Assembly: GCA_016717265.1 (NCBI GenBank)
Contig: JADKFX010000001.1
Location: 1,590,387-1,654,386, forward strand
DNA: 64,000 nt
Origin: Saprospiraceae bacterium
GTDB lineage: Bacteria > Bacteroidota > Bacteroidia > Chitinophagales > Saprospiraceae
Direction of reading: 5' to 3'
Part shown: piece after piece, positions 22,301 to 37,776 of the stretch
How the letters are laid out: the number at the start of each line of letters is the position of its first letter
How positions within the stretch are numbered: the stretch's first letter is position 1
Notes under the pieces: generated by a model
The model's database searches: none
What the model was told of the DNA's origin: nothing
What the model saw: only the letters and a program-made list of their open reading frames with translations
Made by a program: the position numbers and the translations under genes

Positions 22301-23757
22301 TCTTTTTTGAAGCCCTTTGGTCCATTCCAAAAATAATTTGGCTTTTTGCCAATAGAACTTGAAATTAGAACCGCTGAATCTTTGGCGCAGGTAATACTAT
22401 CCCCAGTAATTTCAGCCTCAATAAGACTTCGATTGTCTTTAATTTCAACTTTGGATGTACTTTCACATCCATACGAATCAGTTACTTTAACGGTGTATTC
22501 TCCAGGTTCTTTTATATTGTTATTGGTAGCCCGTGGGCTATAAAAACCATTTGGACCATTCCACTCAAATTGAGGGGAATTTGATTTACTACTTGCTTCA
22601 ATACTACCGGTTGCATTTTTACAATCAATATCTGTAGACTTTATTTTTATATCTGGTTTTGTTACGCTTCCATTTACGGTTATAATTAATTCTTTTTCAC
22701 ACCCATATAATCCAGTTATTTTTAATGTATAGATTCCAGGTGTATCTACAACGGGCATTAAGGTTTTTTCGTTTCTAACAATCCGTCCATTTTTTGTAGT
22801 CCAATTATAGCTAATCCCATTGCCTTGAGATGAACCTGAGGCATCAATTGTAATGGGTCTGTTTAAACAATTTATGTCATCCACAGGAGCTGCTTCTGCT
22901 ATTAAATCATAAACTACTACAGTGACCACATCTTTTTCAACGCAGCATTCTTTAATCGTGATATCATCAATAGCGCACATACTTGCAGGTCCTGTACCTC
23001 CGAAATTTTCAAAGCAAAATGTTCCAGTATTTGCAGCACCTGAATTCCACATAAAACTCCCTATAGCTTCAAGACATAAACCACTTGGTGCATCTACACT
23101 CCCAATTAAAGTTCCATTTACTTTTAAACCAATAGTTGGTGGAGAACCAAATATGTAGGGAATCCCGAAAACTTTATATTCGATTTTATAATCTGTATTT
23201 GGTGTTACATTTATAGTTTGACACCATATGTTAGTACCTGAACCCGTTGGAGTAATTACCATTGTAAATGCACCGATATTTGGATTACAACCAAATGCAC
23301 TGGCGATTTGTGGTACACTCATGATCATATATCCTCCAGTAGATGTAATCAGATTATTTACATTTGTGTATTGTGTATATTGAGAGGTGGCAGGTGCTAT
23401 ATTTCCGGTTTCAAAATTACCGTTCATGATCAGGTTGTTTGAAATTCCATGTGCCGTTAAAGTATAGGTAGTGGTCATGCTTGGATTTGCAACCGGATTT
23501 AATATATTTGGATTACTTAATCCGTCTATAGGTTCCCATTCGTATTGATTCGATCCATTTACATTGCCACTAAGATTTTTTCCTTGGCCAGCACAAATGG
23601 TGATGTCCGGTCCAGCATTTACTGTAATGCCACATCCATTTTGCAAAAAGAGATGCTGCGATAATTTAGTTGGACTTATATTTTGTTGAGCTTCGATATC
23701 CCAGGGACTCAGAAATAGATAAGAGAAAAAAATCGTCAATGCAAATTTAAAACTCAT
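19330..23757 (-). CDS. Giant T9SS type-B cargo, adhesin-like: CBM-like N-domain, about 12 Ig-like repeats, SprB-type repeat and gliding-motility C-terminal domain
   Basis: It has a signal peptide from the ATG at 23757 ('MSFKFALTIFFSYLFLS') and an N-domain with 'NLIMNGNFETGN'. About 78-aa repeats each carry 'W.GPNGF.S......G.Y...V....GC'. The SprB-like repeat is 'CNKNDGKIEILNILGGNAPYKYSID...GIYSVIVEDSNGC'. The CTD is 'YFPNVFSPNGDNINDFF...IYDRWGNLVF...NPGVYIY...GDITLLQ'. Confidence 0.85.
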   Translation of the reverse strand: MSFKFALTIFFSYLFLSPWDIEAQQNISPTKLSQHLFLQNGCGITVNAGPDITICAGQGKNLSGNVNGSNQYEWEPIDGLSNPNILNPVANPSMTTTYTLTAHGISNNLIMNGNFETGNIAPATSQYTQYTNVNNLITSTGGYMIMSVPQIASAFGCNPNIGAFTMVITPTGSGTNIWCQTINVTPNTDYKIEYKVFGIPYIFGSPPTIGLKVNGTLIGSVDAPSGLCLEAIGSFMWNSGAANTGTFCFENFGGTGPASMCAIDDITIKECCVEKDVVTVVVYDLIAEAAPVDDINCLNRPITIDASGSSQGNGISYNWTTKNGRIVRNEKTLMPVVDTPGIYTLKITGLYGCEKELIITVNGSVTKPDIKIKSTDIDCKNATGSIEASSKSNSPQFEWNGPNGFYSPRATNNNIKEPGEYTVKVTDSYGCESTSKVEIKDNRSLIEAEITGDSITCAKDSAVLISSSIGKKPNYFWNGPKGFKKDSSIKMVTKDTGWYYLTTIDSFGCSELDSFYVKDLQNNIALKIFGDTLTCSKKSLAIKLITDTTATINWKGPNGFISNILEPIVTESGWYFVDVKTKDGCIGSDSIFIEKSADLPDLFISNEDTITCDKKMITITGGTNTPGAQFEWQTPTGIVKNQNQIQAVDSGIYLLQVTGVNGCILTKSITISKDIDKPSITGMNDTLNCIKDSVHLNITAGIVRSYIWTGPNNFNSNVASPIIRLKGNYNLVVTGVNGCTSDIQLQIDEDKAVPFLQLSADTINCKQSQIVPFILVDSNTVGFNWIGPNNFNSIFKAPPITKGGIYTVTVQGINGCLNSQILEIIEDTNLPNASLEADTIQCKSTASIRALNISPGAMIQWQGPNNFNSNLPNPTITQSGFYILQLTGLNGCIFMDSVFVFQKDQLPDVFAKDDTLSCIQQKLFLFGGSATQGVRFEWTGPNGFISTLARPEIQDSGIYILKVIDANGCESTKQIHISKFSEQAILNLIKSNDKITCKDSVIQLSINANLPAQSIRWLGPNGYNSNAQQITINEPGKYLVIFSTGFGCISLDSITIQDLRKLPIFNVLDDSINCIRTNVTLQLNTGETDLVFNWSGPGNFSSTLQNPRITNGGNYTITVTNSAACTLIKTLNIKSDTSKPDLFLSADTITCTRNIAPIKASSSLQGFTMKWTGPNGFNYTLPQFSTKVPGRYFCTITNPRSGCSTSTFVDVIEDTSRIRDLMVQGINSSCNKNDGKIEILNILGGNAPYKYSIDNGITFFPNLNNLNLAAGIYSVIVEDSNGCRFTSSVNILENESVKINLAPQIELNSGSNTTIKLNILSNPNDISTILWSPADQLSCNDCMEPLITADHDDLITVIVTDINGCTASATIQLIVKKESKVYFPNVFSPNGDNINDFFYPIGLSPNAKINYLNIYDRWGNLVFQKINGVPGIEKDGWGGLSSNQDKVNPGVYIYLTEISDQGEIKTYSGDITLLQ

Positions 23758-26700
23758 CTTATTAAAGTTATATCGCCTTTTATAATCCATTTTTGTCCAT
23801 TTATTAATTCAACTTCAGCCCAATAAATATAAACTCCAGGGTTACATTTTTGGTCCTTAAAAGTTCCATTCCAAGCTTTTGATTGATCATTCGGTTGGAA
23901 ATTCCTGGTTTCAAATACACGATTTCCCCAACGATCAAATATTTGAAAATTATGGATGCGCGTAACATCCTCTTTGGAACCATGTATCCAAAGAATATCA
24001 TTGATATTGTCGCCATTCGGACTAAAAACATTTGGTACCCAAACTTTTGGTGTTTCTACAACTATTCGAATTCTTTTAGTGGATATACAACCGTTCGTAT
24101 CAATAACAGTCACATTATAGATTGCTGTTTCTGGAGGATTTGCAAATGGATCTTCACACTGATTACAACTAAGATTTAATATAGGATTCCATTGAATTGA
24201 TTTTATAAGATTTCGATTTGGTAATATTGTTAAATCTAAGCGGATAGAGTCTCCTAAACCAATTGCAATTTCTGGTGCTAAATCGGTGTCAATAAATGGC
24301 AGGTCAACGATTTCAAAATCCTTTTGAAATTCGCATTTATTTTCATCTATAACATATAAAGTATATAATCCAGATAATAGTGGATTAAAATTTGGATTCT
24401 TTGTATAATTTCTTTTTTGGTCAATTGAAAATTGAATATTTTGATGTCCACCAATAATTTCTAATACAGATGCGGAACCCGTTTTGGCTCCACATTTTGG
24501 ATGTATTGTTTCTATTAAAACATCTTTAATAATTAAACTATCTTCCGATACAATTTGATTCTTTCTTGAAATACATCCATTTGAAGGATTTAGAATTTCA
24601 ATAAAATATGCTCCCCCTTTTTTTGTTTTTAATAAAGCGTTTGTTGATAGTATTTGATTTTGATTATTTGTCCATCTAAAAATTCCGTTAGTGATATTTG
24701 TTGTGGCCAATAAGGTAGCCTCTGAATGAATACAGTCAATACTATCTGAAGCTGTTAATATAGATGGCTTTAATGTATCTATAAAGACAATGGATTGCTT
24801 TTGATTAATACAACCATTTGAAGCAATAATAGAAATTGTATAAGTTCCCGGAATCAATGTAAGTAAATTTGACTGGGTCGAAGTAATAGTTCCTGGACCT
24901 TTCCATTGATATTGGACTCCAGGTGTATTTGATTTTGCAGAGAGATTAACGGATGGAAAATTGCAATTTATAGTATCGTTATTTGATGTAAGATCAGGAG
25001 TCAAGGTATCTACTGGCACAAAAAATGAAATTGAATTTGCACAAAAATTCGAATTAATAACATCAAATGTAAACGTTCCTCCTGCTTTTGTTAGAATGCT
25101 GTTTGATTTGTATTTTTGTTGATTATTTAAAGTCCATTCGCCGATAAGGTTTGCTGGAACTATGGTCGCCTTAAGTTCTACTTCTCTATCAAAACAGTTA
25201 ATACTATCGAAGGTATATTGCACTAATGGTTTTATGGTATCTTGTAAAATATCAACAACAAAGACATCAGAACAAGTATTCGGTGAGACCACGATTATAT
25301 TATATTTTCCACCTTGTGTAATCGTTGGGAATTTTTGATTTGATGAAAAATTTGAGGGACCTGTCCATTTGTATGAAACCAGTGAATCAGAAGTTGTAAA
25401 ATTCAAATTTGTTTGAGTTTTCAAACAGTTTAATGTATCTATGATTAAATTAAGTACAGGTTTCAAGGTATCTTCTAACACTTCGACATTCAGAATGCTG
25501 TAGCAATTTTCAAAAGTACTTATTCTAATAGTATAAATCCCAGCTGTATTGACAGAAATATTTTGGTTATTAGATTGAAAACCTGCGGGTCCAGTCCAAT
25601 CAAATAATAGGCTATCTCTGGAAGAAATTGCAAATAAATTTGCTGTCCGCTTTGTACAATTTAAGGTATCATTATTTGAAATCAAATCGGGCTTTCCAAT
25701 ATCTTGAAAAATAGTAACTGTTAAAGAATCACTGCAACCATTTGGGTTTGTAACTACAAGATTATAGTTTCCAGGATTTGATGTATAGGGATTTAATAGT
25801 ATTGAATTAAATCCATTGGGACCCTTCCATTGAATAGCGGCATTTGCATTGTCATTTGTTGCCTTTAATTGAATGCTATCTTTTTTACACGTTAAGGTGT
25901 CGTTTGTAGTGCTTAAAATTGGCAACATGACATCTAAATAAATATTCAGGATTTGAGTTGTTGAACAGCCATTAGGAAGCGAAGCAGTTACTGTATAATT
26001 ACCATCTTTTGAAACGAATGGATTTTTTTGACTGCTTGAAAAATTATTAGGCCCACTCCAACTATAAATGGATGTTAAGCTGTCTGAAAGTTTTAAAACG
26101 GTAGATTTTTTTATGCAATTTAAAGTGTCATCTAAGAGTTTAATGTCGGGTTTCAAGGTATCAACAAAGAGCTCAATCTGAACAGTATCTGAGCAACCAT
26201 TTTTTGCTAATCCGATTACCTGGTATTTGCCGGCTTGATTTGAATAAACGGAGTCTTTAAGTTCCACAAAACCATTTGGTCCATACCAACGAATATTAAC
26301 CGTTGGATCGAGGTTTGATGAATTTAATGGAATGGAAGTTTTTAAACAGCTTATGGTATCATTGGAAGCTGTTAAATTTGGGTGAATAGTATCTGCAAGA
26401 ACTGGAATATTTAATAGCGTTATACATCCATTGTCTGCTTCTACTTTCAATTCATAAACACCCGCTGAGCCGGTTTTAATAGATAAGGTATCTAATGAAT
26501 AAAACCAACTAGAACTTTGCCATTGTGCATTTACTATTTTTCTGTTAGTTGTTACTATGATAGTTGACGAATCCTGTAGACAGGTAATTGTATCTAGCTG
26601 ATAATTTACAATTGGAAGGTTTTGATCTTTTTTTAAAAGTACCGTATCATATTTAATGCAACCTGAAGGAGAAGTTACTTTTAAAATATAAATTCCTGTA

Positions 26701-28151
26701 TCCACCACATTCCATTCCGACTTTGAAAAATTAGTATTGTTAGGGCCTGACCATTCAAATTTTGAACCAGCAACGGATGAAGAACCAATTAATCTAGCGG
26801 TATCAACTTTACAGTTTATGGGATTTGACTGGATACTAATTTTGGGATTATCTATAATTTCGAAGACATTGACAGAATCAATTGTTTTACAATTATATTC
26901 ATCTGTAATAGTTAGAATATATTTACCTGCTTCAAGCACAACAACAAGTGGATCATTCGAATTAAAACCATTCGGCCCACTCCATTGATACGTTAATGGG
27001 GAAACTAAACTTCTTGATAAAATGGTAGCACTTAAATTATTGCAACCTAAAGTATCTTTTGAAATCAGCAATAGATCCGGGGGTATGATATTCCCTTGCA
27101 CTTCAATGCTTTTTGTTAAACAACAGTTCGGCAACGGTGAACAGACTGTAAGATAATAAGTACCTGGACCTTTTATTGTTGGTTCCAAACTATTTGCCCC
27201 TGAAATAATTTTTCCATTTGAAGTGGTCCATTGATAAGTCCAACCGGTACCTTTTGATGAAGCTTTGGCATTTAATTTTATCATTGGATTATCGCAAGTA
27301 ATTAATTCAGGTTCTTCAATTTCAACAATAATTTCTTCAACCTCAATTTTCATAGTATCTTTTACTTCACATATTTTTTTGAAGCCTAAATCATCAATTG
27401 CAAAATCATTTCCACCAGTTTGAGTATTTTCATTTAGAATACAAATTTGTGCCACCGTATTTCCCCCAGAATTCCATGTCACTTCATATTTTTCCCATAA
27501 ACAAGTGGAGCCACTTGAGTTAAAATTTGGTCCAATTGGATTACCATTTATTGAAAATTGTAAAACAGCTGGAGAAGCGGATACAACAGAAGTGACCCAA
27601 GCTGTGAAAACATAATCCATATCTGGTATTACAGTTACATCTTGGCACCAAACATTTTGAAAAGCGGCTGAACCATTTAACACCATCATAAGTCCTCCAC
27701 CTGAAGTATGGTCGCCGCAGGGTGCAAATCCTGCATGTCCAAATTGAGGATTCGTGATGACACCGTACGTTCCTTCGCAATCTAAATATCCTAATCCATA
27801 ACATGAATTAGTTCCTAACACATAATCGGTAGTAAAACCAGTATTTCCGGCTTCAAAATTTCCATTTACAATTAAATTTTGAGAGCTTAATCCTCGGGCT
27901 GTTAAAATGTATTCTTGTGGGCCAAAAACAGTTGCTTTAGTTATGGGAGATTTAGGATTACTTAAACCTGTCGCGGGATCCCAAAAAATTTCTGTTACAG
28001 CACCTGTAACTTTTCCATTGATTGTAATTATATCACCGATATTACAAACTTTTAGATCCGGTCCGGCATTTACAGAAATATTGCATTGCCCGTTTAGGAC
28101 TTCTCCAATAAAGCAAAGAATAAGTACTATTTGAAAGAATGCTTTAATCAT
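23754..28151 (-). CDS. Giant T9SS type-B cargo, paralog of 19330-23757
   Basis: It has the same architecture: signal 'MIKAFFQIVLILCFIGEVLNGQ', 'NLIVNGNFEAGN', about 12 'W.GPN.F' repeats, an SprB-like 'CGAKTGSASVLEIIGGH...GLYTLYVIDENKC', and the CTD 'VWVPNVFSPNGDNINDIL...IFDRWGNRVF...NPGVYIYW...GDITLIR'. Confidence 0.85.
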   Translation of the reverse strand: MIKAFFQIVLILCFIGEVLNGQCNISVNAGPDLKVCNIGDIITINGKVTGAVTEIFWDPATGLSNPKSPITKATVFGPQEYILTARGLSSQNLIVNGNFEAGNTGFTTDYVLGTNSCYGLGYLDCEGTYGVITNPQFGHAGFAPCGDHTSGGGLMMVLNGSAAFQNVWCQDVTVIPDMDYVFTAWVTSVVSASPAVLQFSINGNPIGPNFNSSGSTCLWEKYEVTWNSGGNTVAQICILNENTQTGGNDFAIDDLGFKKICEVKDTMKIEVEEIIVEIEEPELITCDNPMIKLNAKASSKGTGWTYQWTTSNGKIISGANSLEPTIKGPGTYYLTVCSPLPNCCLTKSIEVQGNIIPPDLLLISKDTLGCNNLSATILSRSLVSPLTYQWSGPNGFNSNDPLVVVLEAGKYILTITDEYNCKTIDSVNVFEIIDNPKISIQSNPINCKVDTARLIGSSSVAGSKFEWSGPNNTNFSKSEWNVVDTGIYILKVTSPSGCIKYDTVLLKKDQNLPIVNYQLDTITCLQDSSTIIVTTNRKIVNAQWQSSSWFYSLDTLSIKTGSAGVYELKVEADNGCITLLNIPVLADTIHPNLTASNDTISCLKTSIPLNSSNLDPTVNIRWYGPNGFVELKDSVYSNQAGKYQVIGLAKNGCSDTVQIELFVDTLKPDIKLLDDTLNCIKKSTVLKLSDSLTSIYSWSGPNNFSSSQKNPFVSKDGNYTVTASLPNGCSTTQILNIYLDVMLPILSTTNDTLTCKKDSIQLKATNDNANAAIQWKGPNGFNSILLNPYTSNPGNYNLVVTNPNGCSDSLTVTIFQDIGKPDLISNNDTLNCTKRTANLFAISSRDSLLFDWTGPAGFQSNNQNISVNTAGIYTIRISTFENCYSILNVEVLEDTLKPVLNLIIDTLNCLKTQTNLNFTTSDSLVSYKWTGPSNFSSNQKFPTITQGGKYNIIVVSPNTCSDVFVVDILQDTIKPLVQYTFDSINCFDREVELKATIVPANLIGEWTLNNQQKYKSNSILTKAGGTFTFDVINSNFCANSISFFVPVDTLTPDLTSNNDTINCNFPSVNLSAKSNTPGVQYQWKGPGTITSTQSNLLTLIPGTYTISIIASNGCINQKQSIVFIDTLKPSILTASDSIDCIHSEATLLATTNITNGIFRWTNNQNQILSTNALLKTKKGGAYFIEILNPSNGCISRKNQIVSEDSLIIKDVLIETIHPKCGAKTGSASVLEIIGGHQNIQFSIDQKRNYTKNPNFNPLLSGLYTLYVIDENKCEFQKDFEIVDLPFIDTDLAPEIAIGLGDSIRLDLTILPNRNLIKSIQWNPILNLSCNQCEDPFANPPETAIYNVTVIDTNGCISTKRIRIVVETPKVWVPNVFSPNGDNINDILWIHGSKEDVTRIHNFQIFDRWGNRVFETRNFQPNDQSKAWNGTFKDQKCNPGVYIYWAEVELINGQKWIIKGDITLIR

Positions 28152-28374: not shown

Positions 28375-29670
28375 ATGCAACGTAGATCAGCGCTTCAATT
28401 AGTTGGTGCTTTGTCAGCAGCAATTGTGACAAAACCTTCTGATATGTTGAAGGTTTTGGAAACTAAATATCAAGAATCATTATCTACTTTGACATCTTTG
28501 TCGAAAGTAAATGAAACGGTAGTTGTTGATGAAACATTTTGGACTCAAATCAGACAAGCATATTCAGTTTCTCAAACTTTAATAAATTTAAATAATGGAG
28601 GGGTGTCTCCACAACCAAAGCTTGTGCAAGAGGCTGTTGAATATTTTAATAGACTCAGTAACGAGGCTCCATCATTTTATATGTGGAGAATTTTAGATCA
28701 GGGCAGGGAACCACTTCGGGAAAGATTAGCAAATATAGCAGGATGTAGTGCAAGTGAAATTGCAATCAATCGAAATAGTTCTGAAGCATTAGAAACTGTG
28801 ATTTTTGGTCTTCGGTTGAAAGCCGGAGATGAAGTGGTGCTAACGAAGCAAGATTATCCAAATATGATAAATGCCTGGAAGCAAAGGGAACATCGAGATG
28901 GTATAAAATTAAAGTGGGTTAATTTTGATTTTCCAATAAATAATGAGCAAAAAATTGTGGATGGTTTTGTTAGTGCATTTGGACCAAAAACTAAAATTGT
29001 TCAAATTACACATATGATTAATTGGAATGGCCAATTATTGCCGGCAAAAAAAATTGCGGATGCTGCACATGAGCGAGGGATTGAAGTGATGATTGATGGA
29101 GCACATACCTTTGGGCATATTCCATTTTCTATTCCAGATTTAGGTGCAGATTATTTTGGAAGTTCTCTCCATAAATGGTTAAGTGCCCCATTTGGTAGCG
29201 GTTTGTTATATGTTAAGAAAGATAAAATTAAAAACTTGTATCCACTTTTAGCAGCGGCTAATCCAGAGTCAGAAGAGATTACTAAGTTTGAAAATTTAGG
29301 TACGCGTTCTTTTGCTATTGAACAAGCAATTTCACATGCTATTGATTTTTATGAAATGATAGGTGCTGAACGCAAATTCCAACGTTTATTTGAATTGCAG
29401 CAATATTGGACAAAAAAAGTTGAACAACATTCAAAAATAAAAATAAACCATCCACAGGATATTAGCAATAGTGGTGCTATCGGTAATGTTGCAATAGTTG
29501 ATAAAAAACCTGAAGACCTTTCTAATTTCTTATATGATAATTATAAAATTCATACGGTTGCTATCAATTGGGAGAACATAAATGGAGTGAGAATTACGCC
29601 GAATATATATACAACAAAAAAGGAATTAGATAAATTAGTCAAAGGAATCCTTGCATTTGCAAATTCCTAA
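28375..29670 (+). CDS. Aminotransferase class V-fold PLP-dependent enzyme (isopenicillin-N-epimerase/cysteine-desulfurase-like) with Tat-type signal
   Basis: The N-terminus 'MQRRSALQLVGALSAAIV' is twin-arginine-like. The fold-type I motifs 'IDGAHTFGHIP' and 'FGSSLHKWLSAPFGSG' (PLP-Lys in 'SLHK') are present. Confidence 0.8.
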   Translation: MQRRSALQLVGALSAAIVTKPSDMLKVLETKYQESLSTLTSLSKVNETVVVDETFWTQIRQAYSVSQTLINLNNGGVSPQPKLVQEAVEYFNRLSNEAPSFYMWRILDQGREPLRERLANIAGCSASEIAINRNSSEALETVIFGLRLKAGDEVVLTKQDYPNMINAWKQREHRDGIKLKWVNFDFPINNEQKIVDGFVSAFGPKTKIVQITHMINWNGQLLPAKKIADAAHERGIEVMIDGAHTFGHIPFSIPDLGADYFGSSLHKWLSAPFGSGLLYVKKDKIKNLYPLLAAANPESEEITKFENLGTRSFAIEQAISHAIDFYEMIGAERKFQRLFELQQYWTKKVEQHSKIKINHPQDISNSGAIGNVAIVDKKPEDLSNFLYDNYKIHTVAINWENINGVRITPNIYTTKKELDKLVKGILAFANS

Positions 29671-29798
29671 TATGCTTAAAAAGGATGAATACAATTCGGC
29701 AAGTTTTATAAAATTTTTAGAATGAGATTCTCCTATTTGAAGTTTATTAGTTTTCACACTATAAACTTATAGAATATTTAAATAGGTCTTAATATAAG

Positions 29799-29883
29799 TG
29801 CCGAAAGTGGGACTCGAACCCACACGACTTTTAGGGTCACTGGATTTTGAGTCCAGCGCGTCTACCAGTTCCGCCATTTCGGC
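29799..29883 (-). tRNA. tRNA-Leu (anticodon CAA), class II with long variable arm; CCA not encoded
   Basis: The reverse complement reads GCCGAAATGGCGGAACTGGTAGACGCGCTGGACTCAAAATCCAGTGACCCTAAAAGTCGTGTGGGTTCGAGTCCCACTTTCGGCA. The acceptor stem is GCCGAAA/TTTCGGC. The anticodon stem is CTGGA/TCCAG with loop CTCAAAA. The T-arm is GTGGG-TTCGAGT-CCCAC. Confidence 0.92.
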
Positions 29884-30050: not shown

Positions 30051-31478
30051 TTAGATGAATGCTTTTATATTTTTAACTTTTTCCTCTGTTTTTCCATTAG
30101 AAATCCAGGCCCTGCAATTTGGACTTCCACAAGTACATACAAATGCCTCCATTTGTTCATCTAGAAAACTAGCATAATCTAATGTTAGCTCTTCAAACTT
30201 TTCAATGTCTTTACAAGCAATTACATTTAGACCATGATAAATTGTATTTGGACTACAGGAATGGTTTTGAGGTGCCCATTCTTCAGGTTTGGTGTCCCAT
30301 AATATATAGACATCGTTACCGATGGGATAAGCATATTTGCGAAAAACTTCTTTGTCAGCAGCATTCCAGTTTTTATCTACAAAAGCTTTTGTTACAATTC
30401 GTTGACTTCTTTCTTCACCTTTGAAAATGATTTCTCCTTTACGAATTTTATTTAAAGCATAAATGCCATATCCAGCTATTGCGTTTTTCTTGACTATATA
30501 TTTTTTTTGTTTACGTCGATGTCTTTGAATTCCTTCCTGTATTATTTGATTCAAAAAGCCAGCTTGTCCAATGCCATCACATAATAAGATATGATCCGCG
30601 GATCCTTCATAACCTTGTGAATAGAAAACAGAACAGGTGAAATTAATTTCAAGAAAGTAAATTTTACCTTTTGTATTCATTCTAAAATCCATTCTTGCAT
30701 ATCCTTTGCCACCAAATTCTTTAAATATTCCGCAAGCAGCTCTTCTTAACTTTCGATCTAAATTTTCTTCTTTACAAGGAACATTACTTTCTGGATGCAA
30801 TTCTGAAGTTTTTAATTTATACGTTTTGAAAGAAAAGCCCTCTGGAAATAAATATTCAACGGGTTTAAAGGCTATACATTTTTTCTCATCTTTTGAATCC
30901 GCTGCTACTAAAACCGTAAATTCACGACCTTCAATGTATTCTTCAACTAAGACTTCTCCAAATTCATTTAATAAATTTCGAACTTTTAGTAACAAGTTTT
31001 TTTCATCTTGAACAAATGACTTGTCATCGACGCCTAGACTGTCGCCTGCTTTTGATGGCTTTACAAACAGTGGAAACTTTAATTGGGTACTTAAGTCATT
31101 TAAGTCTTCAAGATTTTTAACAATTCTATAATTCGGAACTTCAATGCCTGAAATATAGGCAACATACTTCATGAGCTCTTTTGGAGGATCATAAAGGTCA
31201 ACGGTTGGGCCAGTATAAGGTAAATTTAATAAATCTAATGAATAAATAACATCTATCGAAGGTACTTCCCATTCAAGATAGGATTCACAGAGGTTTACAA
31301 AAATATCATAACCTTGTGTTGATAACTGTTTTAATTGTTTGTAAGTGGTTAATTTATTTATAAAAACATGATCCACATGATGGTCTGGTAACAAAGAACT
31401 CAAATCTCTTGGTGGGTCATAATTTTTATAATCTACATTAGAAGTACTATAATCTGGTTGAAGAACACAAACTTTCAT
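30051..31478 (-). CDS. ATP-grasp (D-Ala-D-Ala-ligase-like) / SET-domain methyltransferase fusion protein
   Basis: The N-terminal ATP-grasp motifs are 'FPLFVKPSKAGDSLGVD', 'VLVEEYIEGREFTVLV' and 'GKGYARMDFRMNTKGKIYFLEINFTCS'. The C-terminal SET motifs are 'GYGIYALNKIRKGEII', 'QNHSCSPN' and 'EELTLDY', with a post-SET 'CTCGSPNC'. Confidence 0.8.
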   Translation of the reverse strand: MKVCVLQPDYSTSNVDYKNYDPPRDLSSLLPDHHVDHVFINKLTTYKQLKQLSTQGYDIFVNLCESYLEWEVPSIDVIYSLDLLNLPYTGPTVDLYDPPKELMKYVAYISGIEVPNYRIVKNLEDLNDLSTQLKFPLFVKPSKAGDSLGVDDKSFVQDEKNLLLKVRNLLNEFGEVLVEEYIEGREFTVLVAADSKDEKKCIAFKPVEYLFPEGFSFKTYKLKTSELHPESNVPCKEENLDRKLRRAACGIFKEFGGKGYARMDFRMNTKGKIYFLEINFTCSVFYSQGYEGSADHILLCDGIGQAGFLNQIIQEGIQRHRRKQKKYIVKKNAIAGYGIYALNKIRKGEIIFKGEERSQRIVTKAFVDKNWNAADKEVFRKYAYPIGNDVYILWDTKPEEWAPQNHSCSPNTIYHGLNVIACKDIEKFEELTLDYASFLDEQMEAFVCTCGSPNCRAWISNGKTEEKVKNIKAFI

Positions 31479-31709
31479 GGAATTAGATGGGTTTCATTAT
31501 TCTATTCAAAGCACTAAATTAAATATTATACTAATAGCTTATATATTTTATTTAATAATTCAATAACTCTTCAGAATCCAGATTCTTAGAGAGCTATCCA
31601 ATTCCTATTTTATAGGTATATCACTAATTTCAAATAACTAATAAACCTCAATATTAAGTATTAATTTGAATTTATTAAAATCTATATAATGGCTTACGGA
31701 ATGCTTATA

Positions 31710-32825
31710 CTATAATTTTATTTTTGATTGATGTCTTATAAAAGCGTCTATCAGAATTTCAATGATTAAATCTTTAAAATGACTACCAGATATTCGCAAA
31801 ATAGCGCCTATTGAAGTAAAGTTTTCATCTTTTGATAGTCCGCATTGTGCATTTACCTCTAATACAAGGATCTTACCAGTTTTTTCATTCCTCCTCAAAT
31901 CAATTCTTCCATATCCTGTCCCATGCATTGCTTTATATGCTTGCCAACTTATATTTTTGATTTCATCAATTAAGTGATCTGGTGGTTTTTCATAATTCCA
32001 TAAAGGTTTATCATCAGACAATGGGCTTTCATTTTCATAGATTTCCCATAATCGGTCAAACGATAAAAATTGTTCAGTACTTGGAATTGAATTCTCAAAA
32101 ACACGTTCAACAGGTGTATATATTTTGCATTCATTGTAATTTTGGGAAGGCCCAACAATAAGTGTGGTATATTCCTGACCTTCTATAAATTCTTCGACAA
32201 ACAAGCCGCCCGAACTTAAATCCCAACCTTTATAGCCTGATTGCAAAACTTTAAGATAGTTTGATAATTCAAGTTCTGATTTTACAACCGATTGAAGACC
32301 TAATCCCAAACTTCCGGCAGAAATTGCAGGTTTTACAATTAAAGGCTGTTTTAAATTCTTAAATAATGCATTCGAATTATAAGTATCTGGATCCAACACC
32401 ATCCATGGAGAATTCGGCACATTCGCTTTGTCAAATAATTCCTTCATTGGAATTTTTGATGTGGTTATATCGTAAAAGTACCGATCTGCTCCTGTGTATA
32501 TAAGTTGGTAATATTCTAATGCATCTATTACAGAAATTCCAGGTACACCATTGGCCTCATCGCCGTCACATAAATTAATTACAATAGGGGTTTTTGGGTA
32601 GGATTCAAGTTTGATTGCAGCAATTATGCTCTTGAAATTCTGAATTTCAACAGATTGCCATTTCCAAGCTAAATTTAGTTCGGAAAATACATTCTGATAT
32701 TCTTGTACGCTTTGACTAAAGTCGTAATAATATTGGAGATTGGGATCATTAGTTTTTAGAAATGGTGCAAGGATCCAAACGAGCCAATCCTCTGCTTTCA
32801 AAAAATCATCAGACCTCAAAGACAT
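31710..32825 (-). CDS. Stand-alone ATP-grasp ligase (D-Ala-D-Ala-ligase-like), paralog of the N-terminal half of 30051-31478
   Basis: It has 'PLIVKPAISAGSLGLG', 'LFVEEFIEGQEYTTLIVG' and 'GTGYGRIDLRRNEKTGKILVLEVNAQCGLS'. It overlaps the upstream SET gene by 17 nt. Confidence 0.8.
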   Translation of the reverse strand: MSLRSDDFLKAEDWLVWILAPFLKTNDPNLQYYYDFSQSVQEYQNVFSELNLAWKWQSVEIQNFKSIIAAIKLESYPKTPIVINLCDGDEANGVPGISVIDALEYYQLIYTGADRYFYDITTSKIPMKELFDKANVPNSPWMVLDPDTYNSNALFKNLKQPLIVKPAISAGSLGLGLQSVVKSELELSNYLKVLQSGYKGWDLSSGGLFVEEFIEGQEYTTLIVGPSQNYNECKIYTPVERVFENSIPSTEQFLSFDRLWEIYENESPLSDDKPLWNYEKPPDHLIDEIKNISWQAYKAMHGTGYGRIDLRRNEKTGKILVLEVNAQCGLSKDENFTSIGAILRISGSHFKDLIIEILIDAFIRHQSKIKL

Positions 32826-33369
32826 GTTTTTTTGTCTTCTTCAATTTGTTTGTAATATATTGAGTGAATTGATAATTGGATACCATTTCTTTAGTTAGGT
32901 ATTTGGCTCCTTTTATTTCACCTAAACATTTTAAACTAAGGCATTGACAATCAAAACTTTCTTCCATGTCCCATTCAGTAGATGGATAGAAAAAGGTAAA
33001 TTCTTCGCCTCTTTTAATATCACTTAAGCAAATAAATTTAAATTCCGATGTGTCAAAAAAGCAATTTGGTTCACAACTATGATTCACATATTCCAAATAT
33101 AAAGGGGAAAGTATAATATGTTTATTTTCTCCAGTTTGAACAGTATATCGATTCGGTTTATCACAAATATCTGCATAACTAAAATGGCAAATTACAGACC
33201 CTTTTTTGAAGTCTTTTAATGAAATTAGCCTGTTTTGTTGGAGTTTATTATCAAAATCAATCTTCGCGAAACTTGATTTTGTTTGCAAGCTAGGGATTAT
33301 TTCCATCAGGATTGGTTCTTGTTTATAAAAGTGCTGCAATGTAATAAGTTTATTGAATTCAACTTTCAA
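32809..33369 (-). CDS. Stand-alone SET-domain (lysine) methyltransferase
   Basis: It has 'LISLKDFKKGSVI', 'YVNHSCEPNC' and 'GEEFTFFY', with a post-SET-like 'CQCLSLKC'. Confidence 0.8.
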   Translation of the reverse strand: MKVEFNKLITLQHFYKQEPILMEIIPSLQTKSSFAKIDFDNKLQQNRLISLKDFKKGSVICHFSYADICDKPNRYTVQTGENKHIILSPLYLEYVNHSCEPNCFFDTSEFKFICLSDIKRGEEFTFFYPSTEWDMEESFDCQCLSLKCLGEIKGAKYLTKEMVSNYQFTQYITNKLKKTKKHVFEV

Positions 33370-33434: not shown

Positions 33435-34076
33435 TTAACGTATTCCAAGTAATTTATGGGTTTGGATACTGAGTCTCCAGGTTGGATGTTGTAAACAAAA
33501 ATCTAAGGATTGTTGGATGTGCTCTTGGATATTGGCACCATCCATTGGTTGTATATAAAAATACTGAAAATCAAAATGTTGAAAATCTTCAGGGTTAAAA
33601 TTTAATTGTGGATAGATAAATTTTAATTCATTTCCAGAACGAATTTTAATAATAGTATTAGGTTTAGGACTTAAACAGATCCAATCAATTCCTTTTGGAG
33701 CTTCAATTGTACCATTTGTTTCTAAACCTATTTCAAAACCTATGTCATGAAGTGAATCTATCAAGGGGTCATCAACCTGCAATAAGGGTTCTCCACCAGT
33801 AAAAATAACATATGGTTTAATTTTATGACCCACGTTCATTTTTGGCCAAAGGCTTTGAATGCATGCTGCCAAATCATTTGCGGATGGATATTTTCCGCCA
33901 TAAGTTCCATTAATACCAACAAAATCAGTATCGCAAAAACTACAAATTGCCTGCTGTCTATCTTCTTCTCGGCCATTCCATAAGTTACATCCAGCAAATC
34001 GTAAAAAAACTGCCGGCCGCCCTGTTTGGGCACCTTCACCTTGTAAACTATAGAAAATTTCTTTGACCAAATACAT
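33435..34076 (-). CDS. queE: 7-carboxy-7-deazaguanine synthase (radical SAM)
   Basis: 'EIFYSLQGEGAQTGRPAVFLRFAGCNLWNGREEDR..AICSFCDTDF' and 'WRLSIQTHKLLGI' closely track the short Burkholderia-type QueE as I recall it. Confidence 0.9.
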   Translation of the reverse strand: MYLVKEIFYSLQGEGAQTGRPAVFLRFAGCNLWNGREEDRQQAICSFCDTDFVGINGTYGGKYPSANDLAACIQSLWPKMNVGHKIKPYVIFTGGEPLLQVDDPLIDSLHDIGFEIGLETNGTIEAPKGIDWICLSPKPNTIIKIRSGNELKFIYPQLNFNPEDFQHFDFQYFYIQPMDGANIQEHIQQSLDFCLQHPTWRLSIQTHKLLGIR

Positions 34077-34133
34077 GTAACAAAAAATACTAAATTATAA
34101 ATTACAAAAAATTAATTATTTGAATTTAGAATT

Positions 34134-34691
34134 CTACACCAAAGGTAAGATGTTCAACCGGAACTCCTCAAGTTGATGAATTAAATATCTAGGTTTGACA
34201 CTCCAATTATCTATGTTTTTGTTTGAATCCAGGAAAGCCACAGGGGTAATTCCAGCTTGCATGGCAGCACTCATATCTGTATCTGTATCACCAATAAAGT
34301 AACAATTCTGAGGTATTATTTCAGAAAACTCTTGAAATGCCTTTAGAATCATACCTGGCTTAGGTTTTCTGCAATCACAGTTGGACTCTTTTAAATGCGG
34401 ACAAAAATAAATTTTTGTTATTTTACCTCCGGATTTCTGAATTTCTGAAAGCATCCATTGATGAATGCTTTCAAGATCTTCTATACTCATCAATCCTTTT
34501 CCTATTCCTTGCTGGTTGGTTATGATAAAAATATTTTTGAAAATCTTACTTAATTTAGAAATTTCTGGAAGTACTCCAGCTTTAAATTTAAAAGAGTCCA
34601 CGGATCTCACATATTCTCCAGGTAATAATTCATTAATTACACCATCCCGGTCAAGAAAAAGGGAATCATTCGCTTTATTAGATTTGATCAT
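34134..34691 (-). CDS. gmhB: D-glycero-D-manno-heptose 1,7-bisphosphate phosphatase (HAD-IIIA)
   Basis: It has 'LFLDRDGVIN' and 'ITNQQGIGKG'. The Zn motif is 'YFCPHLKESNCDCRKPKPGM', and 'IGDTDTDM' is also present. Confidence 0.8.
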   Translation of the reverse strand: MIKSNKANDSLFLDRDGVINELLPGEYVRSVDSFKFKAGVLPEISKLSKIFKNIFIITNQQGIGKGLMSIEDLESIHQWMLSEIQKSGGKITKIYFCPHLKESNCDCRKPKPGMILKAFQEFSEIIPQNCYFIGDTDTDMSAAMQAGITPVAFLDSNKNIDNWSVKPRYLIHQLEEFRLNILPLV

Positions 34692-34916
34692 ATACGCAGC
34701 AATCTAGATTTATATATGTAAATCATTATTTAATAAAATACAAATAAGATTCATGTTCATATCAAAAGGATGCTTAAAACTGCTAAAATTATGGTTCTAA
34801 AATTAGTATACTATTCATAACATATTTCAAGATTCAATTATTAACTTTAATTTGAACTTGATATTGTTTATTATTTTGACATAGGCTGTTAAAAAAATTG
34901 CCAATATATATTTTTA

Positions 34917-35489
34917 TTAAAATATTTTTTCTTCAATCAATTGACAAATGATATGCCCAATTAGAATATGACACTCCTGTATTCTTGGCGTATCGTTAGA
35001 AGGTACACCGATCCAAAATTGACTCAATGCTTTCAATTGGCCTCCATCTGCACCGGTGAAACCTACAGTCAACATTTTTTTATGGATAGCTTCATCAAAT
35101 GCTAAAAGTATATTTTTTGAATTTCCAGAGGTGCTTAATCCAATTAATACATCTCCTTCCATTCCAATTCCTTTAATTAATCTTTGATATATCGAATCAA
35201 AACTATAATCATTTGCCACTGCAGTTAAATAGGAAGTATTGCAATGCAATGCTTCTGCAGGTAATGCATCTCGATCTTTGTAAAACCGACCCGTTAATTC
35301 TGCAGCCAAATGTTGAGCATCAGCCGCACTGCCACCATTGCCACAAAAATATATGCGTTTTTTATTCTGAAGTGCATTCACCATCTTTTCCACAACCATT
35401 TCAATAGTCGTTATTAAAACGTCATCCAAAAGAATACTTCTTTTGGTTTCAATGGATGTTTTAATAATATTTAAAATAGTGTTTTTCAT
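34917..35489 (-). CDS. gmhA: Phosphoheptose isomerase (SIS domain)
   Basis: It has 'IYFCGNGGSAADAQHLAAEL', 'LSTSGNSKNIL' and 'TPRIQECHILIGHIIC'. Confidence 0.85.
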   Translation of the reverse strand: MKNTILNIIKTSIETKRSILLDDVLITTIEMVVEKMVNALQNKKRIYFCGNGGSAADAQHLAAELTGRFYKDRDALPAEALHCNTSYLTAVANDYSFDSIYQRLIKGIGMEGDVLIGLSTSGNSKNILLAFDEAIHKKMLTVGFTGADGGQLKALSQFWIGVPSNDTPRIQECHILIGHIICQLIEEKIF

Positions 35490-35691
35490 ATTTCAAAAGT
35501 AATTTAAATTTTGGACAACTTTAATGTATGCAATGCTAATAGTTGTTATTGGTTTTACGAATTAAAATTTAATACCATTTTACACTTCATATCCAATTTT
35601 TAGAATACGCAAAAATAAGTATATTATTCTAAGTAATAGGATTTTGCAATTTTCACTTCTGGTAAAATGCTCATTTGTTATAAGTTATGTC

Positions 35692-36834
35692 TTAATTATT
35701 TTTTTGAATGCTATTCGCTAGTGATTTTATATGCGTAATCAATGTTGCCCAACTTAGTTTTTTCTTCATTACTTGTATTCCATTTTGAAAAATAGTTTCA
35801 TCCATATTAAAAAATTGGACTATCGTATTTGCAAGATCTTCAGAAGTTGGTTGACAAACCAAGCCGGCAATTTTATGCGGAACCAAGGATGCTAAACCTC
35901 CAACATCAGTAACTACCATAGGTTTGTCAAAATAATAGGCTAATGGTGTCACGCCACTCTGCGTTGCATGTCTATAGGGTTGTACTATTAAATCCGCGGC
36001 AGAAAAGTAGTTCTTAATTTCACTATCTGGAATATAATGGGTATGTAAGTAAATTTTATCTTGAATGCCAAATTTATCAATAAGGTCTAAATAGGGTTTT
36101 GATTCATCATAAAATTCACCTGCAATTAATAGTTTTATATTTTGAGTTTTTAAAATTGCATAATTAAAAGCTTCAATCAATAAATCTAATCCTTTATATT
36201 TTCGAATAAATCCAAAAAACATAATTATTTTTTCATCTTTTGGTAAGTTTAATATATTGCGCGCAACGTCTTTAGGAATGGATTTTCCAAAATTATCAAA
36301 AAGTGGGTGATCCGTAATTATTGATTTTGAGTTTGGTAAGAATTTTTTTAAATCCAGATCTACTTTCGCACTCATAGTAATAAATGCATCTGGTTTGTTA
36401 ATAAAATAGCGGGTAAAAAATGCATCTCCAATTCTTTTTTCATGTGGAACTACATTATCTGCGATGCAAATTATTTTGCATGTATTTATTTTTTTTACAA
36501 ATTTTAAAATCGTTCCTAAACAGGGTCCCATAAAAGGTATCCAATATCTAACAATAATCAAATCTGGAGAAGATTGTTTTAGTTTAAGACCAATGCGAAT
36601 CCAATTGAATGGATTCACAGAATTGATACAGACATTTATTTTTAAATCTGTTGGCTTTAGTTCATTTGAAAACTGGCTGGTGCCAGGAAAAAGTATCGTG
36701 GGGTACTGCAAAGAAAATGTATATATTTCAACATTCCATCCTTCTTGTTGGAAGGCTCGGGCTAAGCGTTCATTAAATGAGGCGATTCCACCTCGGAGAG
36801 GATATGCGGGCCCCATGATAATAACATTTGGCAT
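35692..36834 (-). CDS. Glycosyltransferase family 4 (GT-B fold)
   Basis: The C-terminal GT1/GT4 motif is 'FFGFIRKYKGLDLLIEA...LLIAGE.......ADLIVQPYRHATQSGV'. Confidence 0.8.
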   Translation of the reverse strand: MPNVIIMGPAYPLRGGIASFNERLARAFQQEGWNVEIYTFSLQYPTILFPGTSQFSNELKPTDLKINVCINSVNPFNWIRIGLKLKQSSPDLIIVRYWIPFMGPCLGTILKFVKKINTCKIICIADNVVPHEKRIGDAFFTRYFINKPDAFITMSAKVDLDLKKFLPNSKSIITDHPLFDNFGKSIPKDVARNILNLPKDEKIIMFFGFIRKYKGLDLLIEAFNYAILKTQNIKLLIAGEFYDESKPYLDLIDKFGIQDKIYLHTHYIPDSEIKNYFSAADLIVQPYRHATQSGVTPLAYYFDKPMVVTDVGGLASLVPHKIAGLVCQPTSEDLANTIVQFFNMDETIFQNGIQVMKKKLSWATLITHIKSLANSIQKNN

Positions 36835-36837
36835 ATC

Positions 36838-37776
36838 CTATTTTAAACTCTTATCAATAAGGTATACATTCCGGTCTGTTGCATTGCGGGTTACTAATTC
36901 TGCAAGAAAACCAGTGAAAAACATTTGTGAACCAATGATCATTGAAACCAAAGAGAGAAAAAATGCAGGCCTTTGGGTCATACCCATTTGGCCATAAGCA
37001 AGTTTTGTAAAACTGAGATACATAACAAAACAAAAACCTAAAAAGAAAAATACTAAGCCTAGTGCACCAAAAAAATGCATGGGTCTTTTTCCAAACCTGC
37101 CAATAAATAATATAGTAGACAAATCCAGAAACCCATTTATAAAGCGGCTCATCCCAAATTTTGATTTGCCATATTTACGTGCTTGGTGTTGTACTTCTTT
37201 TTCGCCAATATTTCTGAATCCAGACCATTTGGCAATTACGGGAATATATCGGTGCATCTCACCATATACTTCAATCGACTTTACAACATCTTTGCGATAC
37301 GCTTTCAAACCACAATTCATATCATGCAACTTTACACCACTCATCCAACCAGTAACAGAATTATATATTTTAGAAGGAATGTTTTTAGTAAATGCATTAT
37401 CATACCGCTTTTTTTTCCATCCAGATACTACATCAAACTTTTCCTCCTTAATCATACGATATAATTCTGGAATTTCTTCCGGACTATCTTGAAGATCTGC
37501 ATCCATGGTGATTACAACATCCGCATTACAAACATGAAATCCTGTATTTAAGGCGGCTGATTTCCCATAATTACGTCTAAATTTAATTCCTTTTATACTT
37601 GGATACAAATGATGTAAAGATTCAATGACTTCCCATGTTGAATCTGTACTCCCATCGTCAATAAACCAGACTTCATAAGTTAAATCTGTAGTTGTCATAA
37701 CCTTGCGGATCCAATCTACGAGTTCAATTAAAGACTCTTCTTCATTTAATGCCGGAATAATTAGAGCTACATCCAT
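36838..37776 (-). CDS. Glycosyltransferase family 2 (polyprenol-phosphate glycosyltransferase, GtrB/ArnC-like)
   Basis: It has 'IIPALNEEESL', 'FIDDGSTDST', 'NYGKSAAL' and 'ITMDADLQDSPEEIP', plus two C-terminal TM helices. Confidence 0.85.
   Translation of the reverse strand: MDVALIIPALNEEESLIELVDWIRKVMTTTDLTYEVWFIDDGSTDSTWEVIESLHHLYPSIKGIKFRRNYGKSAALNTGFHVCNADVVITMDADLQDSPEEIPELYRMIKEEKFDVVSGWKKKRYDNAFTKNIPSKIYNSVTGWMSGVKLHDMNCGLKAYRKDVVKSIEVYGEMHRYIPVIAKWSGFRNIGEKEVQHQARKYGKSKFGMSRFINGFLDLSTILFIGRFGKRPMHFFGALGLVFFFLGFCFVMYLSFTKLAYGQMGMTQRPAFFLSLVSMIIGSQMFFTGFLAELVTRNATDRNVYLIDKSLK

Follow-up and report, generated by a model that had tools for sequence, protein, structure and literature searches.

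We describe three adjacent genes in a Saprospiraceae bacterium (GenBank assembly GCA_016717265.1, contig JADKFX010000001.1), found in a window of 64,000 nt, i.e., positions 1,590,387 to 1,654,386 of the forward strand. The genes lie on the minus strand and, in the order of transcription, encode a small SET-domain protein (SET_B), a stand-alone ATP-grasp ligase resembling D-Ala-D-Ala ligase (Ddl), which we call AG371, and a fusion of a second such ligase domain (AG_F) with a second SET domain (SET_F). Their order is conserved across Bacteroidota and their domains are naturally fused in other organisms, and we regard it as very probable that the four domains act in one pathway. We consider the chance about even that this trio is a cytoplasmic small-molecule pathway making a methylated amide, with a substrate type and an order of steps that we infer.

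Conserved gene order in Bacteroidota

Relatives of the fusion protein are abundant. Scoring of candidates from the protein collection gave more than 4,200, and the best 120 of them, with 62–82% identity, come from Saprospiraceae, Chitinophagaceae and Sphingobacteriales. When one genome per species was scanned, at least 579 stretches were confirmed to encode a relative of the fusion, and the carriers include Ohtaekwangia, Cyclobacteriaceae, Lewinella and the cultured species Lacibacter cauensis. At all of 83 loci inspected, AG371 lies directly upstream of the fusion, although contig ends truncate it in a few, and the small SET gene lies upstream of AG371 in 69 of the 83; in six (L018, L026, L042, L044, L053 and L082) the flanking sequence available lacks it, and in one it lies downstream. 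The order SET, ATP-grasp, ATP-grasp-SET recurs in Saprospiraceae, Chitinophagaceae, Sphingobacteriales and Cytophagales, where the flanking genes are unrelated. The linkage, which the preliminary description of this stretch had seen in one genome, is thus not confined to it. The fusion is also well maintained in sequence, since it shares 71% identity with its counterpart at locus L001, compared with 61% for the neighbouring QueE and 59% for GmhA.

Apart from the trio itself, no flanking family is conserved beyond local synteny in the Bacteroidota loci. In Chitinophagaceae, recurrent neighbours are a single-stranded DNA-binding protein (SSB), a PIF1-like helicase, an MnmG-like gene (named from sequence alone) and a small Zn-ribbon-like protein, which occur in 29–43 of 82 loci, and we read them as synteny among relatives and not as pathway partners. 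The fusion is immediately followed, on the opposite strand and next to an SSB gene, by a gene for a small, basic and Cys-rich protein (MDMVNGNRYCRTCNKLLRGRTDKKYCDDQCRNSF..., about 125 aa) at locus L002 (9515–9910, minus strand) and 33 other Chitinophagaceae loci, 34 in all. This adjacency, too, is read as synteny, although it may reflect a functional link.

Natural fusions and the wider family

An exhaustive HMMER search of cluster representatives gave 235 clusters at E<=1e-30, many of which match the whole ligase-SET protein with 30–48% identity. The architectures were classified by running domain hidden Markov models, built from our own alignments, on 150 representatives plus P0022. The plain ligase-SET architecture was found in 71 of the 150 representative clusters; a ligase-SET protein followed by a BurB-like SET domain (BurB is introduced below) was found in nine, and a BurB-like SET followed by a ligase in two (P0171 and P0240). 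An AG371-ligase-SET protein (P0022), an AG371-ligase protein (P0153) and a protein having all four domains in one chain in the order AG-SET-SET-AG (P0156) were also found. Natural fusions therefore link the domains of the system in most pairwise combinations. The preliminary description had argued, in the manner of a Rosetta stone, from the split pair and the order-swapped fusion that ligase and methyltransferase act on the same substrate; the recurrent gene order, together with the AG371-AG-SET, AG-SET-SET, SET-AG and four-domain fusions, strongly supports this inference.

The same description had treated the split pair and the fusion as two equivalent modules, and this view has to be revised, because the core is the fusion alone and the small SET and AG371 are optional. 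In 80 further metagenome loci, usually without conserved neighbours, the plain fusion of about 490–520 aa is present in about 45 and a triple fusion of about 640 aa with a C-terminal BurB-like SET in about 25; among 83 loci outside Bacteroidota, the most frequent neighbour family occurs in only 12. The universal core is accordingly the ATP-grasp-SET fusion, and the small SET and AG371 are accessory to it.

The family reaches other bacteria and eukaryotes including protists. Vermamoeba vermiformis carries a ligase-SET copy, and a relative of the Vermamoeba protein was found on a eukaryote-like metagenome contig (L088/L089, 8001–9968), where the neighbours are BTB, Kelch, COPII and reticulon genes; its ligase and SET parts were annotated as two genes with about 580 bp between them, and this gap is possibly an intron. 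Mesostigma viride has a family protein of 1,415 aa with four BurB-like SET repeats, and one family protein has 6,220 aa. On two metagenome contigs (L115, 1723–5427; L116, 6611–10100) the ligase-SET(-SET) gene is tandemly duplicated.

The small SET protein and BurB

Bacterial SET proteins are usually read as effectors acting on host chromatin or as modifiers of nucleoid proteins. The small SET of the window scores 42.0 bits against Pfam SET PF00856 (cutoff 22.4), and the motifs noticed in the preliminary description, NHSCEPN, EEFTFFY and CQCLSLKC, are all present. It thus has the NHSC motif, the Tyr at the catalytic position and the post-SET Cys cluster of the SET family, and N96, H97, C99, Y128, C141, C143 and C148 are invariant among 23 homologues.

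When the profile of the small SET family was compared with known structures, BurB (PDB 9l4t) was the best match (E=9.4e-22, 80 bits), and the next best, histone methyltransferases, gave 41 bits. Direct comparison of BurB with the small SETs gives 32–40% identity over about 110 aa, across the domain, and both carry the C-terminal signature NHSC.PN ... Y.STE ... F.C.CG..C...I.GAK.L. The relatedness to BurB extends over the whole domain in the small SET and does not do so in SET_F. By these profile and alignment comparisons, the small SET is a member of a BurB-like subfamily, specifically related to BurB. BurB, itself a SET-domain enzyme, converts free methionine to S-methylmethionine by S-methylation, a step towards dimethylsulfoniopropionate (DMSP) (PMC7496086; PMC12542666). 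It contacts methionine through main-chain atoms, and no substrate signature can therefore be read from the sequence. Because the small SET relates to an enzyme of a free amino acid, with a profile score for BurB about twice that for the best histone methyltransferase, the premise of the preliminary description that these SETs methylate protein lysines is unsafe.

Most of 22 aligned homologues of the small SET have about 165–170 aa and start near Met22 of the window protein, so the true start may be the ATG at 33306, which would give a protein of 165 aa. An N-terminal extension like that of the window protein is found in two homologues, including the closest relative at locus L004 (75% identity).

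The fusion protein

The fusion scores 42.2 bits against Pfam SET (cutoff 22.4). Its AlphaFold2 model has a predicted local distance difference test (pLDDT) score of 77 and a predicted template modelling (pTM) score of 0.69, and in a Foldseek search of this model against the PDB the N-terminal two thirds match Ddl structures with E of about 1e-19 and a target-normalised TM score of about 0.7. The AG_F invariants K140, K223, R262, D264, E277 and N279 align to Ddl residues, which we take to be K144, K215, R255, D257, E270 and N272 in Ddl numbering. Invariants of SET_F include G336, G338, H406, C408, Y435, C448, C450 and C455; this domain has the GxG motif, NHSC, the Tyr at the catalytic position and the post-SET Cys cluster, and belongs to a more canonical, separate SET subfamily. 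Most catalytic residues of the fusion family are invariant or nearly so even in relatives of only 30–48% identity, and, with these residues intact, the enzymes of the trio look active.

The profile of the SET_F domain matches the histone methyltransferase KMT2A with 66 bits over the full length and BurB with 65 bits over the C-terminal half only; in direct comparison BurB and the fusion SETs share 45–53% identity, only over the last ~60 residues. Judged by such alignments, the two SETs of the window belong to different subfamilies. The preliminary description had held that the paralogues share only motif skeletons, and this understates their relatedness: AG371 and the ligase part of the fusion have 29% identity over 291 aa (E=1e-25), and SET_F and the small SET have 32% over 94 aa (E=1e-8).

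The stand-alone ligase and the class of both ligases

Invariant residues of the AG371 family include K165, E211, R307, D309, E323 and N325, which may be read, from motif correspondence with Ddl alone, as ATP and Mg2+ ligands. Both ligases of the window clearly match Dala_Dala_lig_C (59 and 79 bits, cutoff 24). They were rejected as ordinary Ddl, as their best scores against the NCBIfam D-Ala-D-Ala ligase models were 77 and 90 bits (74–77 bits for AG371) compared with cutoffs of 243–246. RimK membership was likewise rejected, since AG371 scored 23.7 bits against rimK_fam (cutoff 143.4) and rimK_fam was not among the best 25 of the 43 NCBIfam matches of the fusion, and neither ligase matched the Pfam tubulin-tyrosine ligase (TTL) family at E<=0.01.

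Genomic clues to the substrate

The genomic context of the core gene was looked up in four distant bacterial clades, and a polyamine-type decarboxylase gene is present beside it in each. At L085/L086 the core gene is part of a five-gene operon (8001–12572 in L085, also present in L086) encoding ligase-SET, an AlaDh_PNT-like dehydrogenase, a BurB-like SET of 136 aa, a divergent AdoMet_dc paralogue of 121 aa and a DUF3326 protein, and this operon looks like a self-contained small-molecule pathway. At L084/L087 a ligase-SET-SET gene adjoins a tandemly duplicated divergent AdoMet_dc, a protein of 266 aa with two domain copies (L087, 10048–10848, minus strand; L084, 2229–3029, minus strand), in which the Glu-Ser self-cleavage motif is kept only in the second half (AESHIALHF) and the first half reads AGGHLTIHT. 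These divergent AdoMet_dc copies score 52–58 bits, below the equivalog cutoff of 75.65. At L171 a bona fide S-adenosylmethionine decarboxylase of SpeH type (139 bits, cutoff 75.65) lies upstream on the same strand, and at L172 a fragment of biosynthetic arginine decarboxylase (speA) lies nearby, with a split AG371-like ligase upstream. If such decarboxylases are taken to number about one gene per genome, as is typical, we judge that chance would hardly account for three or four adjacencies of independent origin.

Several other types of partner were looked for. No gene for a candidate substrate protein is linked in 160 loci, no precursor peptide is linked either, and decarboxylase, transaminase and dehydrogenase of the BurB type for DMSP synthesis are not conserved beside the trio in the 83 loci. 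Membership in a defence system was rejected, as PADLOC gave no match to a defence model for any of the three proteins.

Proposed pathway and alternative explanations

In the pathway that we propose, the genes would form one operon-like unit whose four catalytic domains act on the same substrate in the cytoplasm. The bifunctional ATP-grasp ligase-SET protein would be the core, and the BurB-like SET and the second ligase would assist it in this genome. The ATP-grasp domains would spend ATP to convert a carboxylate to an acyl-phosphate, and the acyl group would then be joined, by chemistry of the Ddl type, to an amino-acid- or polyamine-type cation at a primary amine. Using S-adenosylmethionine, the SET domains would place a methyl group on an amine of this molecule or perhaps, like BurB, on a thioether. 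A polyamine ending in an aminobutyl or aminopropyl group would resemble the lysine side chain that SET pockets accept.

We lean slightly, and by little more than an even chance, to a small molecule rather than a protein as the substrate, because the small SET is similar to BurB, which methylates free methionine; because both ligases are closest to Ddl, which is itself a small-molecule ligase, and not to RimK or TTL; because no substrate protein or precursor peptide is linked; and because the core adjoins polyamine-type decarboxylases in four distant lineages. That this molecule is of polyamine type is a tentative suggestion, less probable than its being small. Of the two candidate functions that the preliminary description had put forward, synthesis of a methylated peptide or amino-acid conjugate is the better fit and modification of a ribosomal or nucleoid protein the lesser one.

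Several observations weigh against the proposed pathway. The relatedness to BurB amounts to only 32–40% identity, in a sequence carrying no substrate signature; SET_F and histone-type lysine methyltransferases can be aligned over the full length of the domain; and a polyamine or decarboxylase neighbour was found in none of 160 loci (80 from Bacteroidota and 80 further metagenome loci of the AG-SET(-SET) clade), nor in the window, so that the polyamine link rests on four lineages only. The fusion, moreover, is more conserved than its housekeeping neighbours, a pattern that an enzyme of a conserved macromolecule would show as well. This conservation and the alignment of SET_F favour the main alternative explanation, in which the SETs would methylate lysines of a conserved protein (ribosomal protein, translation factor or nucleoid protein) and the ATP-grasp domains would add amino acids or a polyamine to its carboxylate, as RimK or tubulin ligases do; we think this possible but rather doubtful. 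It agrees with the full-length KMT2A match of 66 bits and with the NCBI name of the fusion, protein-lysine N-methyltransferase, which is based on homology only. It would also explain why the fusion is so conserved, with 73% mean column identity across families, and why in many bacteria it is a lone gene without pathway partners, as would be the case if the gene for its substrate lay elsewhere; TTLL12, too, pairs a SET-like with an ATP-grasp (TTL) domain (PMC3520985). However, the ligases resemble Ddl rather than RimK, LysX or TTL, the accessory SET is like an enzyme of a free amino acid, no candidate substrate gene is linked in the 160 loci, and the decarboxylases and dehydrogenases that adjoin the core in distant lineages resemble parts of metabolite pathways.

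A sulfonium pathway, in which the small SET would make S-methylmethionine and the ligases and the second SET would turn it or its decarboxylated amine into a DMSP-like or conjugated sulfonium, appears improbable. In its favour, no other characterised protein comes nearly as close to the small SET as BurB does, and the divergent AdoMet_dc paralogues stand beside the core in two lineages; S-methylmethionine would be a plausible alternative substrate for these paralogues, because AdoMet decarboxylases act on a sulfonium amino acid. Against this, the identity to BurB is low, the small SET is dispensable in many lineages, the other enzymes of the BurB pathway (PMC7496086) are not linked in Bacteroidota, and the sole nearby aminotransferase is convergent, PvdN-like and associated by Saprospiraceae synteny only; the genuine S-adenosylmethionine decarboxylase at L171 points to polyamines instead. 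Coincidental adjacency, i.e., an ordinary or decayed Ddl beside a SET by chance, and a ribosomal-peptide tailoring pathway are both effectively excluded. The former would suit the label 'D-alanine-D-alanine ligase' that databases frequently give to the fusion, but the scores are far under every Ddl equivalog cutoff, linkage and fusions are conserved across phyla, and the catalytic residues are intact; the latter lacks a precursor ORF, a protease and a transporter. The product may be a widespread new class of metabolite (methylated quaternary ammonium or sulfonium amides of polyamines or amino acids), or else a new composite mark on a conserved protein, combining a methyl group with an aminoacyl or polyamine group; we hold such an outcome to be possible rather than likely.

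Comparison with known systems

The superfamilies composing the system are already known, as are ATP-grasp pathways with tailoring enzymes; the SET-ligase system itself is widespread and uncharacterised. AG_F and Ddl share the fold (TM of about 0.7), the ATP/Mg2+ residues and the omega-loop lysine, and the expected chemistry is alike, that is, acyl-phosphate formation followed by amide formation. The difference from Ddl lies in an NLC(D/E)G motif of its own in the N-domain and in the fusion or linkage to SET domains, and this is not the cell-wall enzyme. Likened by description, the anserine pathway follows the same logic of ligation and then methylation: carnosine synthase, an ATP-grasp enzyme, makes a dipeptide, which is N-methylated by carnosine N-methyltransferase. 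In that pathway the methyltransferase is not a SET enzyme and the two enzymes are neither fused nor clustered.

BurB of Burkholderia thailandensis (PDB 9l4t/9l4v) is, like the small SET, a stand-alone bacterial SET protein of about 170 aa, but it sits in a virulence cluster of the nonribosomal peptide synthetase–polyketide synthase type that also holds decarboxylase, transaminase and dehydrogenase genes (PMC7496086), whereas the small SET is partnered by ATP-grasp ligases and a second SET. As a working analogy, the phevamine (hsv) operon of Pseudomonas syringae comes closest. It is a three-gene unit of an amine modifier and two ATP-grasp ligases: spermidine is modified by an amidinotransferase and receives valine and phenylalanine from the two ligases, giving phevamine A, a decorated amide of polyamine and amino acids (PMC6187163). 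The likeness lies in gene content and logic, the amine modifier is an amidinotransferase rather than a SET enzyme, and the polyamine link of our core is indirect, with such neighbours only in the four distant lineages and not in Bacteroidota.

The preliminary description knew of no characterised system that pairs the two activities. The searchable full text bore this out, as it gave only eukaryotic TTLL12 as a published SET-like/ATP-grasp combination (a 2009 survey of amidoligases lay outside the scope of this search). TTLL12 has a SET-like and then a tubulin-tyrosine-ligase-like domain, the same order as in the split pair of the window, and is reported to have shown neither methyltransferase nor ligase activity (PMC3520985). 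Its ligase domain is of TTL type; the window ligases have no TTL match, and the catalytic residues of the window proteins are conserved.

Gene layout and surroundings

The three open reading frames (ORFs) are present, all on the minus strand, at the coordinates of the preliminary description (Table 1), and the SET and ATP-grasp domains assigned there were confirmed by Pfam profile search, in which all domains of the three proteins exceed the curated thresholds. The gene arrangement also agrees with that description: the small SET stop and the AG371 start overlap by 17 nt (32809..32825), which suggests translational coupling of these two genes, and its gap of about 230 bp before the fusion was found to be 231 nt. 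The spacer has no same-strand ORF of at least 20 aa, in line with the preliminary description, which had found no precursor-peptide ORF there, and it has no Rfam match; in other loci its length ranges from about 5 to 250 nt. The only block it has in common with the two closest relatives is a promoter-like, TAnTTTAG-like stretch, and it may contain an internal promoter. A precursor peptide or an RNA element in the spacer was rejected on these grounds (no such ORF, no Rfam match and no conserved block beyond TAnTTTAG). No riboswitch was found upstream of the operon in the window or in nine diverse loci.

Table 1. Coordinates of the trio, its domains and surrounding features in the 64,000-nt window
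Feature	Positions	Strand	Size or composition	Profile match or remark
Small SET gene (SET_B)	32809..33369	-	listed ORF 186 aa, TTG start	Pfam SET E=1.4e-10
Ddl-like ATP-grasp ligase gene (AG371)	31710..32825	-	371 aa	Dala_Dala_lig_C E=5.4e-16
Spacer between AG371 and fusion	31479..31709	-	231 nt, AT-rich	without coding or structured element
Fusion gene, ATP-grasp then SET	30051..31478	-	475 aa	Dala_Dala_lig_C aa 121-279 E=3.5e-22; SET aa 336-435 E=1.2e-10
AG_F, ligase domain of fusion	30513..31478	-	~aa 1-322	Ddl fold
SET_F, SET domain of fusion	30051..30512	-	~aa 323-475 plus stop codon	
QueE, GmhB-like, GmhA-like and two glycosyltransferase genes	33435-37776	-		upstream of the trio
Class-V aminotransferase gene	28375-29670	+		convergent with the operon
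tRNA-Leu (anticodon CAA)	29798-29883	-		
First giant ORF	19330-23790	-	1,486 aa	
Second giant ORF	23754-28151	-	1,465 aa	

The neighbours of the trio in the window, namely QueE, GmhA/GmhB, glycosyltransferases and a class-V aminotransferase, accompany it only in Saprospiraceae-syntenic loci (L001, L004–L007), and a functional link to them was rejected for this reason. The QueE is of the Cx14CxxC type (327 bits, above cutoff) and has no other queuosine genes beside it, and the GmhA-like and GmhB-like genes are heptose genes. The N-terminus of the aminotransferase (MQRRSALQLVGALSAA...) resembles a twin-arginine export signal, and among named proteins it is most closely related to SufS-like enzymes and to PvdN, a periplasmic enzyme that tailors pyoverdine. 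The tRNA-Leu gene, which follows the fusion on the same strand after about 170 nt, is the sole Rfam-level RNA gene in the window. The two giant ORFs are in tandem and overlap by 37 nt, and the counterpart of the second at locus L001 carries a CHU_C domain, a C-terminal domain of type IX secretion type.

Significance

A SET subfamily welded to a ligase, together with BurB-like SETs, is present in hundreds of species and several eukaryotes, and solving the system would give a name to the product, metabolite or protein mark, of a large family now called hypothetical. It would also put to the test the idea that SET domains had, as a major ancestral role, the methylation of small molecules, and new chemistry of polyamines or sulfonium compounds may come to light in Bacteroidota that abound in the environment. 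Experiments can address the question directly, given the natural fusions and Lacibacter cauensis as a cultured carrier. SET enzymes are known almost exclusively as modifiers of chromatin; if a new metabolite class or a new protein mark is indeed made, a large branch of bacterial SET proteins would serve a different chemistry, of which BurB would be the first glimpsed member, and in the case of a metabolite the methylated amides would be expected in abundant Bacteroidota of soil, freshwater and wastewater, in other bacteria and in some protists.

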